Shown here piece after piece: positions 24,690 through 26,958 of a stretch of 64,000 bases of DNA. Within the stretch, counting starts at the first letter, position 1. Every line of letters begins with the position of its first letter. This DNA comes from Escherichia coli (GTDB taxonomy: Bacteria > Pseudomonadota > Gammaproteobacteria > Enterobacterales > Enterobacteriaceae): NCBI RefSeq assembly GCF_044324875.1, contig NZ_CP172185.1; one strand, given 5' to 3'. Made by a program: the position numbers and the translations under genes. The notes under the pieces were generated by a model. That model did no database searches. It was not told the DNA's origin and saw only the letters and a list, made by a program, of their open reading frames with translations.

Positions 24690-24779
24690 GTAGAGTAAGA
24701 GGCAGGGCGTAGTCGGACTATTTCCCTGCCTCTCCTCCCCGAACCGGACGTGCACCTTTCAGCGCATCCGGCTCTCCAT

Positions 24780-25166
24780 TTAAATGCTGGCGAACGCCAT
24801 TGCCACTTCTGTAAAGCGCGATGTATACGTGTTTCTGGTCTCCGTCCTCAGATAGGGATTACCTTCGGGTAGCCGCCAGCGGAACAGCTTCTTGCCTTGC
24901 CCCACCAACCGGTACAGTATTTCGCCGCTGAGCTTGCCGTGATTGGTTTTACCAAATAAAACCCACGTTTTGCTCTGACCCGGTTTCGGTGATTTACACC
25001 ACCACCTCATCAGGGAAGCGATACCTGTACGGTATTTGCGGGCCAGCCAGTGAGCCAGCTTCCAGAACACGACACGGTCGATATAACTGAAGACTTTGGC
25101 CTTAAAATCAACGAACTGATAGAACATGGCCCAGCCTTTCAGTTTTCGGTTGAGTTGTTCAGCCAT
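24780..25166 (-). pseudogene. Group II intron maturase (X) domain in a different frame from the RT ORF
   Basis: 128-aa ORF; RT ORF ends at 25208 in another frame, so the intron protein is probably frameshifted. Confidence 0.6.
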
Positions 25167-25207
25167 ATCGACTTTGCTTTCACTGTAGTTGCCTGATAAC
25201 AGTGCTG

Positions 25208-26302
25208 TCAGCGATGCGGCGAAGTTTCTGGCTTTCTCCTGCGGGACGTTGAGACCACTCGCATCTCGCCATAACGACTGCGTTTGCGAATGATCCTGTG
25301 CCCCAGAAAGATAAAGCCGTCATTAACATGGGTGATTTTAGTCTTATCCATGTTCAGCCTGAGTTTCAGACTGCCTTCGAGCACACCCCGACACTCCTCC
25401 CTGATGGCTTCCGCCTGTGCTTTGGTGCCTTTGACGATGAGGACAAAATCATCGGCATAGCGGCAGTACGCCACCGCGGGTTTCCACTGCCAGTTTTCTC
25501 TGACCGCCGTACTTCGGCCCCGTTGGATACTGTTATTCCAGTACCACCGATCTTTTCTGGCTTTCCCGCTCAGGTAGCGCTCATGCAGGTATTGATCGAA
25601 CTCATTCAGCATGATGTTCGATAATAGCGGCGATATAACACCGCCCTGTGGCACACCTTCACTGGCCGCCCGAAAGAGACCGACATCGATATGTCCCGCC
25701 TTGATGGTTTTCCACAGCAGAGTCATGAAACGTGCGTCACTGATCCTGCGGCGTACAGCCTTCATCAGCAGTCGATGATGTACGGTGTCGAAGTAACTGG
25801 ACAGGTCGCCTTCAATCACCCAGCGTCCCCGGGTTTCACCACAGTCTGTGAGCTGTAATTTCACCGTGCGGATAGCGTGGTGGACACTGCGCTCAGGCCG
25901 GAAGCCATATGAGAGCGTATGAAAATCACTCTCCCATATCGGCTCCATCGCCATCAGCATGGCCCGCTGAACAATACGATCCCGCAACGTGGGGATACCC
26001 AGTGGTCGCAGTTTGCCGTTGCTTTTAGGGATGTAAACCCGTCTGGCGGGCAAGGGCTGGTAGTGGCCTGAGAGTAATTCATCCCTGAGGATTTGCAGCT
26101 CAACAGCCAGTCTGGCCTGTAGCATTATTTTGTTCACGCCATCAACGCCGGGGGTATGGGCCCCCTTTGATGAAAGCGTGATCCGCGCCGCTTCAGCCAG
26201 CCATTCTGGTTGTGTTATCAGACGCAGCAGCCGTTGAATCCGTAGGGACGGATCGGTGGCTGCCCATGTGGCAAGCTTGCGTTGCATTTCGCTGATTATC
26301 AA
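25208..26302 (-). CDS. Group II intron-encoded reverse transcriptase (RT domain), separated from the maturase domain by a frame change
   Basis: 364-aa ORF with RT motifs (RPLGIPTLRDRIVQ, GVPQGGVISPLLSN, YCRYADDFVLIV); the final residues look out-of-frame. Confidence 0.75.
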   Translation of the reverse strand: MIISEMQRKLATWAATDPSLRIQRLLRLITQPEWLAEAARITLSSKGAHTPGVDGVNKIMLQARLAVELQILRDELLSGHYQPLPARRVYIPKSNGKLRPLGIPTLRDRIVQRAMLMAMEPIWESDFHTLSYGFRPERSVHHAIRTVKLQLTDCGETRGRWVIEGDLSSYFDTVHHRLLMKAVRRRISDARFMTLLWKTIKAGHIDVGLFRAASEGVPQGGVISPLLSNIMLNEFDQYLHERYLSGKARKDRWYWNNSIQRGRSTAVRENWQWKPAVAYCRYADDFVLIVKGTKAQAEAIREECRGVLEGSLKLRLNMDKTKITHVNDGFIFLGHRIIRKRSRYGEMRVVSTSRRRKPETSPHR

Positions 26303-26958
26303 AGGTCTTCACCTCGTTAGGTCAGTTAATTCACGTCGCAAACACATTCAAACTGCTTCCCTTCGCCATGTAATGGGCTTTCCCCATCGCGGACTACTAC
26401 GGAAGCTCCGCCAGCCAGCGCGTCATCGGAGCCATGCCCCCTTAACATCCGTCGCTGACCTTCCCCGGTTTACCGGCCTGGACTCAGGCATACTGAGGAG
26501 GCTGCCCGTCGCACTCTTTATCCTTGCTTGCCGCAAGTTGGCAGAAGTCAGCAACGCAAGCGTGATAGACGCTGCTGCCCCGGTGTTTCGTATACATGTC
26601 AAAACACCTTCGACCGGCAGTGCTTACGTATCACTGCCAGTTCCTCCTGCACGGCCTGTCAGATCACGTAGGCCGTGGTGACGTTTTCAACCCACAGAGG
26701 CGGATTAACGGGTTCATGTTCTTCAGCCTTTCAGTACTTAACCTTGAGGATCATCTCGGCTTAGTGATCTCGCCTCAATCCCCGTTGTCAGCGGGTTACA
26801 TCACCCTGCGGGCATGCCGCAGGTCACTGCCGCTCAGGTTCTCCACCGTCACACCCGGTGGGATTGTTGGGTTTCTCATCGTGAGTTACCGGTTCAATAT
26901 TCCAGACAGACTCGCGGTTCATTTAAGCATCCATGCCCGCCCTGAACTCCGGGCACAC

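Follow-up and report, generated by a model that had tools for sequence, protein, structure and literature searches.

In a 64,000-nucleotide stretch of the Escherichia coli contig NZ_CP172185.1 (assembly GCF_044324875.1; hereafter the window), a full-length group II intron, E.c.I4, lies at 24690..26958 on the minus strand and joins the 5' part of one insertion sequence (IS), IS629, to the 3' part of another, an IS911-like element. In our view, this chimera is very probably the product of homologous recombination between E.c.I4 copies residing in different IS elements. Near-identical intron copies of 2.27 kb would supply homology that the IS elements themselves lack, and host homologous recombination anywhere within two such copies would swap everything on one side of the crossover. 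The outcome would be an IS629 5' exon and an IS911-like 3' exon, with both junctions exactly at the intron ends, which is the arrangement of the window copy.

On the minus strand, GTGTG at 26958 opens the intron and ..CTAC at 24690 closes it, and the Rfam model RF00029 (Intron_gpII, domains V/VI) matches positions 24690-24776 of the same strand with 64.9 bits (gathering score 40). The same two boundaries are found in 18 other full-length copies, located in plasmids, chromosomes and prophage contigs and with different flanks, and thus the intron extends neither past 26958 nor below 24690. The 5' exon (26959..27753, minus strand) comprises the IS629 left end, orfA, the frameshift pseudoknot and orfB as far as the codons for ..ADFTY (GAT TTT ACT TAC G), and over its 795 nt it matches nt 1-795 of the intact window copies of IS629 taken as reference (10290-11600, 17605-18914 and 19527-20837) with 99.7-100% identity. 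The terminal inverted repeat, the orfA/orfB organization with its pseudoknot (ALIL, 27302-27418, 111.7 bits) and the near-identity all identify this part as IS629; PGAP labels such copies as IS1203 family. The 3' exon (24202..24689, minus strand) reads TC TGG ACG GGT AAG CGC TGG.. from 24689 down to 24202, giving a protein that starts with (V/I)WTGKRW, and continues orfB for 488 nt to a right inverted repeat of IS911 type, ..GACCACTTCA. These 488 nt are 100% identical in an enterotoxigenic E. coli (ETEC) plasmid (L001) and in strain GF4, 99% in the phage-plasmid pCPF6 and 95.5% in pWS1933D. Since PGAP assigns identical copies to the ISEc52 family, and those that it labels IS911 family show about 95% identity, 'IS911-like' (ISEc52-type) would be the accurate name for this element. 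At both ends, the coordinates, codons and host elements agree with the original prediction, which had placed the intron between IS629 ..ADFTY and IS911 ..WTGKRW.

The homology available for recombination lies in the intron and not in its hosts. Next to the insertion site, IS629 and IS911 match at 19/28 nt and diverge beyond it, so the two elements offer no homology of their own. Among the 19 full-length intron copies that we examined, in which one pCPF6 copy is represented twice (L002 and L006), identity is 99.6-100% irrespective of the exons, with 24 variable columns. Matched exons flank 12 of these copies (IS629|IS629 in five, IS911|IS911 in five and a third IS on both sides in two), and the other seven carry mismatched exons, in which four IS types are involved: IS629|IS911 in four copies, and IS911|IS629, IS629|third IS and IS629|fourth IS in one each. 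An IS629-like 5' exon is joined to a third IS3 element (TCAGGACCCACGAAGG..) in pOXA10_020023 (L003, 3293-5562), and to a fourth 3' exon (TCTGGGCAGGAAATCG..) in L012 (416-2685).

The frequency of each exon combination was determined in 5,426 complete E. coli genomes, using query constructs that reach 80% coverage only if both exons match. The IS629-intron-IS911 chimera is present in 298 genomes (~5%) and IS629-intron-IS629 in 1,153, and both counts are reliable. For the reciprocal chimera, IS911-intron-IS629, and for IS911-intron-IS911 the counts of up to 914 and up to 854 genomes must be read as maxima: the conserved stretch of exon lets megablast carry an alignment on for 28 nt, which brings a match with only one exon to 80.2% coverage. 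The whole IS629-intron-IS911 segment has end-to-end matches at 99.7-100% in many chromosomes and plasmids. A search for the reciprocal product, which had been suggested as a check of the original prediction, returned at least 60 records at 99% coverage in which an IS911-like 5' exon is followed by the intron and an IS629 3' exon, and in five cases (CP035837, CP025860, CP145682, OY754357 and CP182371) both chimeras are carried by one replicon.

The same genomes bear on the possibility that an IS629/IS911 hybrid was formed first, by recombination between the two IS elements, and that the intron retrohomed into it later. The target site is conserved in both elements, and such a hybrid would therefore remain a homing site. 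However, a contiguous intron-less IS629/IS911 junction was found in none of the 5,426 genomes; the six places that scored at or above 80% in this search each consist of two pieces about 1 kb apart. Given the short and imperfect match around the insertion site, a crossover exactly at that point is very unlikely, and it would have to be repeated with four different partners, so that we regard this order of events as highly improbable.

Another way to place a junction exactly at the intron end is exon co-conversion during retrohoming, in which the cDNA of an unspliced IS629 precursor, or a template switch, would have carried the 5' exon into an IS911 recipient. In yeast mitochondria, group II introns are known to co-convert the 5' exon, whereas bacterial retrohoming normally proceeds without it. 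In the window the IS629 exon is unbroken up to the IS629 left end, 795 nt in all, and beyond it lies DNA that is not IS911, a remnant of an IS66-family tnpC (27774-28322, on the strand opposite to IS629 and the intron). There is no return to recipient sequence, nor any homology by which such an intermediate could be resolved, and this route does not predict the reciprocal copies, in which IS911 supplies the 5' exon and IS629 the 3' exon. We therefore give co-conversion hardly any credence as the source of the chimera.

Recombination between intron copies also fits the recurrence of the chimera in different surroundings. The outer flanks differ on both sides among the window and GF4, the ETEC plasmid L001 and pWS1933D (L005), and in pWS1933D the 3' exon is the 95.5%-identical IS911 variant, which together indicate that the exchange happened more than once. 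With the reciprocal class, these three pairs of flanks and the lack of intron-less junctions, the proposal that the present copy is an IS629/IS911 recombinant holds, and it has a published precedent in Table S2 of PMC3522654. We infer that RecA-type recombination, rather than a process based on reverse transcriptase (RT), made the exchange.

Several points weigh against this explanation. In pWS1933D the IS629 flanks, GGGT at the left end of the chimera and AGAT at the right end of the reciprocal, form no target duplication, and a single simple inversion in that plasmid was not confirmed. For the window locus, the predicted partner junction, hsdR-'IS911-intron-IS629 3', occurs in 0 of the 5,426 genomes. 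The crossover point is not locatable with only 24 variable columns among the copies, as these provide too few single-nucleotide polymorphisms, and the counts for the reciprocal and IS911|IS911 classes are ceilings. In addition, the 64-kb window holds no IS629 3' part with the ..TTC flank of the chimera. The original prediction had also implied that the two intron pieces of the window, of which the second is described below, are parents or products of one exchange; with the partner junction missing from these genomes and the target-duplication test failing in pWS1933D, this pairing was not demonstrated.

The element has the hallmarks of a group II intron, namely 5' GUGYG and 3' AY ends, domains V/VI and an RT with a maturase (X) domain encoded in domain IV. 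Its size, architecture, host and targets, set against the published description, point to E.c.I4, of bacterial class A; according to that description, E.c.I4 of E. coli and Shigella homes into IS629, IS911, ISEc16 and ISEc31 (Leclercq & Cordaux 2012, PMC3522654) and its copies measure 2271 bp (Table S3 of the same work). E.c.I4 and S.f.I1 are placed in the endonuclease-less class A (Toro & Martinez-Abarca 2013, PMC3552965). The intact 502-aa homologue of strain GF4, encoded in an intron of 2270 nt, contains RVT_1 (7.7e-35) and GIIM (1.3e-10) domains and no HNH or other endonuclease domain. The E.c.I4/S.f.I1 group II intron of E. coli and Shigella is said to have been described by Dai and Zimmerly in 2002.

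The window copy is 2269 nt long, against 2270 nt in copies elsewhere, to which it is 99.6-99.96% identical. Relative to the intact 502-aa ltrA of GF4 and other records, an A is deleted at alignment column 1713, and this 1-nt deletion, between 25247 and 25246, breaks the RT/maturase gene (24780..26302, minus strand) into two open reading frames (ORFs), 25208-26302 (364 aa) and 24780-25166 (128 aa). The deletion leaves the copy unable to supply its own maturase or RT, and the window intron is now dead, a fossil. If maturase came from elsewhere, splicing of the chimeric exons would be predicted to yield an in-frame IS629-IS911 hybrid orfB (..D F T Y V W T G K R W..).

All 19 copies are inserted after ..AC(T/C)TA(C/T)(G/A) in four types of IS, which are IS629, the IS911-like element, a third IS3 element (..GACATAACCTACA|TCAGGACCCACGAAGG) and the element with the fourth type of 3' exon. 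The 5' exon ends in ..GAT TTT ACT TAC G in IS629, ..GAT TTT ACC TAC G in an IS629 variant, ..GAT GTG ACC TAT A in the IS911-like element and ..GAC ATA ACC TAC A in the third IS3 element. We take the D-x-T-Y encoded at the insertion site to be the motif in which IS3-family transposases have their first catalytic Asp, which would explain how one RNA finds its site in several elements, and E.c.I4 would accordingly be pictured as retrohoming into the codons just after this Asp. The proposal that one intron targets the homologous site of different transposases is thus borne out by near-identical copies at D-x-T-Y in four element types, in agreement with PMC3522654.

The means by which the intron recognizes these targets proved less simple. 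Folding the RNA and comparing its exon-binding sites (EBS) with the intron-binding sites (IBS) of the two 5' exons, another suggested check, yielded a mixed answer: there is indeed one RNA with invariant candidate segments, since intron nt 188-198, 263-269 and 328-370 do not vary among the 19 copies, but the pairing is more complicated than one EBS serving two sites. The Rfam D1-D4 group II models gave no match on the intron even at E<=1. In the predicted fold, nt 188-198 (GAGAUCACUAA) and 327-336 (GAUACGUAAG) form hairpin loops, and three segments can pair with exon positions -1..-6. One of them, CGUAAG (331-336), pairs 6/6 with IS629 but only 4/6 with the remaining targets. If G-U pairs are counted, UGUGGGU (263-269), alone among the segments, can pair 7/7 with each of the five target variants; this segment is itself predicted to be paired within the fold, and a site of this kind arises in 5% of shuffles.

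Covariation was assessed by aligning domain I of eight relatives whose proteins are 70-86% identical. The loop of the last hairpin in domain I (about nt 360-370) changes in step with exons of widely different sequence, ACCAUU facing AAUGGU in L025 (6/6 Watson-Crick), with 6/6 also in L028, L030 and L031. In E.c.I4 this loop (..UGUAUA..) pairs 4/6, at -1..-4 only; these pairs can form with every target, as the transitions at -1 and -2 are tolerated by U and G. In L023 the loop 327-336 is favoured instead (UGUAGC versus GCUACG). With the last loop as EBS1, pairing restricted to -1..-4 would account for a relaxed choice of IS, whereas with CGUAAG as EBS1, IS629 would be the cognate site and the other targets would be mismatched. 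The candidate for EBS1 obtained from folding alone conflicts with the multi-target data and with the covariation in relatives. EBS2 is probably the loop 188-198, in which GUC faces GAC in L023 and AUC faces GAU in E.c.I4; all nine target types, also those that are not IS elements, have GAY at -13..-11. Relatives with 79-81% protein identity (L025, L026 and L027, in metagenome or genome contigs) are located at a homologous position in DUF2913 genes and not in an IS, and their last domain-I loop fits this other exon, as in L025. The GF4 island contains a split DUF2913 gene pair (L004, 5984-6560).

At the window locus the chimera borders a type I restriction–modification (R-M) cassette (13387..24009, minus strand), recognized from its ORFs, NCBIfam matches and the annotation of GF4 and pCPF6, which lies between the two intron pieces. 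It comprises hsdM (21550-24009), hsdS, a DUF4268 gene (16419-17582) and hsdR (13387-16404), all on the minus strand except for a segment of hsdS, which is broken by IS629 copies at 17605-18914 and 19527-20837. The second intron piece, at 13006..13164 on the minus strand, is 100% identical to intron nt 1-159 and follows, as the original prediction had noted, IS911-like codons for ..GDVTY. These belong to a 145-nt internal fragment of an IS911-like orfB (13165..13309, minus strand), the 5' exon of this cut copy, which ends in GGT GAT GTG ACC TAT A and is separated from hsdR by a 77-nt spacer; within the 176-nt piece here, only nt 32-176 match IS911-like copies elsewhere. A feature that the prediction did not mention is that the intron is cut at 13005, after its nt 159, by the left end (TGAAGTGGTTTACTG..) of another IS911 copy, of which the left end and the start of orfA remain (12671..13005, minus strand; left inverted repeat TGAAGTGGTTTACTGAATTTGGCC at 13005), interrupted by IS30. 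The region 10290-13005 is a nested pile of IS elements, with IS30 inside the IS911 orfA (IS30 end TGTAGATTCAATTGG at about 12670) and the IS30 transposase ORF (11598-12608) truncated by IS629 at 11600, to 336 aa from 383. In GF4, IS30 is complete and the IS629 is located elsewhere.

The whole arrangement, including the 159-nt stump, is common to GF4 and largely common to many other strains, and in every E. coli case where the intron and an IS911 3' end stand next to this hsdM, IS629 supplies the 5' exon. The window junction is therefore one old, inherited event, carried along with the raffinose/R-M island. No 'pure' IS911::intron precursor upstream of this hsdM was found in the E. coli genomes.

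The same cassette is present in the phage-plasmid pCPF6-IncFIB as a unit of 11,146 bp with TCT at both ends, in the order TAAATGACTC..hsdM-S-DUF4268-hsdR-77 nt-'IS911(145)-full intron-IS911 3'..CCACTTCA. The hsdR/IS911 junction is identical to that of the window, and the full intron stands in place of the 159-nt stump. At the other edge of the cassette, the window has the IS911 right end joined through a single TCT to TAAATGACTC, the upstream end of the cassette (TCT plus TAAATGACTC at 24189..24201, minus strand; join within 24189-24211). The TCT shared by the window junction and both ends of the pCPF6 unit is either a signature of a circle junction or target duplication, or a 1-in-64 coincidence.

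These features allow another account of the window locus, in which a circular R-M unit of 11.1 kb (hsdM..hsdR-'IS911-intron-IS911 3', closed at right inverted repeat-TCT-TAAATG) would have integrated by a single crossover in which its intron recombined with an IS629::intron in the chromosome, so that one event would yield both the chimera and the second intron copy. We consider this possible but doubtful. A unit of exactly this kind is carried by pCPF6, the window has the circularly permuted junction (right inverted repeat-TCT-left end), the cassette lies between the two intron pieces, which are direct repeats, and an IS911::intron precursor beside this hsdM is, as stated, lacking. However, the right junction that it predicts, intron-IS629 3', is the one missing from all 5,426 genomes, the left end of the unit bears no resemblance to an IS911 end, and an independent IS911 insertion at another TCT would be only a 1-in-64 coincidence. 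Nor was an empty site for the unit found, as no plasmid has both flanks contiguous, which leaves the target duplication or circle junction unconfirmed; p1919D62-2 diverges directly left of TCTACACTCGC, so that TCT is backbone there. An ordinary IS911 insertion with duplication of TCT would be expected to give the junction AAGTCATCT followed by the IS911 left end (TGAAGTGG..) upstream of hsdM. The broader notion that E.c.I4 copies act as portable homology that moves cargo between replicons, and that a circularized 11.1-kb unit of the pCPF6 type entered the chromosomal island through an intron crossover, we hold to be somewhat less probable still; if true, a retroelement would have served as docking site for a defence cassette. 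The phage-plasmids p1919D62-2 (L007) and pCPF6 (L006) carry different cargo at the same backbone position, directly left of ..TCTACACTCGC, an SNF2-related gene in the former and the type I R-M unit in the latter, which suggests a variable hotspot for defence cargo.

Returning to recombination between intron copies as such, we infer the following order of events at the window locus. The exchange would have put the 11-kb type I R-M cassette beside an IS629 sitting in the IS66 remnant; later, the second intron copy would have been cut at nt 159 by IS911, and the surviving copy would have lost its maturase through the 1-nt deletion.

Other rearrangements are apparent in the window, which holds four full IS629 copies (646-1955, 10290-11600, 17605-18914 and 19527-20837) and the partial one at 26959-27753, all 99.7-100% identical. 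A clean target duplication (GTAC) is present only at 646-1955, and the mismatched flanks of the other copies point to several IS629-mediated rearrangements in the island. The two copies that interrupt hsdS are inverted relative to each other (17605-18914 minus, 19527-20837 plus), and target duplications are exchanged between their flanks (..CAACC|IS against the reverse complement ACC.., with TTG likewise), which indicates a putative inversion, mediated by IS629, of the part of hsdS that they enclose; an hsdS fragment, the ORF at 18925-19575, is encoded on the strand opposite to the rest of the cassette. Far from the intron, Rfam matches were obtained for Ysr251 (54224-54417, plus strand, 191 bits) and RtT RNA (52716-52852, 46.3 bits, just above threshold).

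The intron, its homing into several IS elements and its chimeric IS629/IS911 hosts were all published already. Table S2 of PMC3522654 lists copy E.c.I4-3a, in the SHI-1 island of E. coli 55989, with the remark 'the IS host is a chimeric IS629/IS911', and gives a 'chimeric IS629/ISEc31' as host of E.c.I4-15 in IAI39. As these subjects have been in the literature since 2002-2012, no new question is opened here. What our analysis adds are the frequencies, the presence of both reciprocal classes without intron-less hybrids, the recurrence in several contexts, the dead state of the window copy and its location at the edge of an R-M cassette shared with a phage-plasmid. Together they make a clean natural case of a retroelement that, by homing into several unrelated carriers, creates homology where none was, with the consequence that IS elements and the surrounding islands are scrambled. 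With 298 of 5,426 genomes carrying the IS629-intron-IS911 form and mismatched exons in 7/19 copies, such scrambling is routine and not exceptional. For annotation, it accounts for the recurrent pairs of 'IS3 family transposase, incomplete' around ltrA in E. coli.

Among known systems, the window intron is closest to E.c.I4/S.f.I1 itself, with which it shares its size, an RT and X domain without endonuclease, insertion at a single position in the transposases of IS629, IS911 and two or more further members of the IS3 family, and the occurrence of many near-identical copies per species. Nothing essential differs, apart from the frameshift of the window copy and its setting, a raffinose/IS-rich island in which a type I R-M cassette is its neighbour, whereas the published chimeric copy is in SHI-1. 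The exchange resembles repeat-mediated ectopic recombination between IS copies or between rrn operons, in that dispersed near-identical copies, here of 2.27 kb, yield both reciprocal products in populations; it differs in that the homology provided by E.c.I4 is nested in non-homologous carriers, which results in recognizable hybrid IS elements with heterologous ends. Leclercq and Cordaux (PMC3522654) argue that recombination is particularly favoured by tandems of IS and intron longer than 3 kb. The strategy by which an intron devoid of an endonuclease domain homes into IS transposase genes is shared with RmInt1, found in ISRm2011-2 of Sinorhizobium meliloti (see also the discussion in PMC3522654). 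RmInt1 belongs to class D and has essentially one IS target, whereas E.c.I4 uses several members of the IS3 family.

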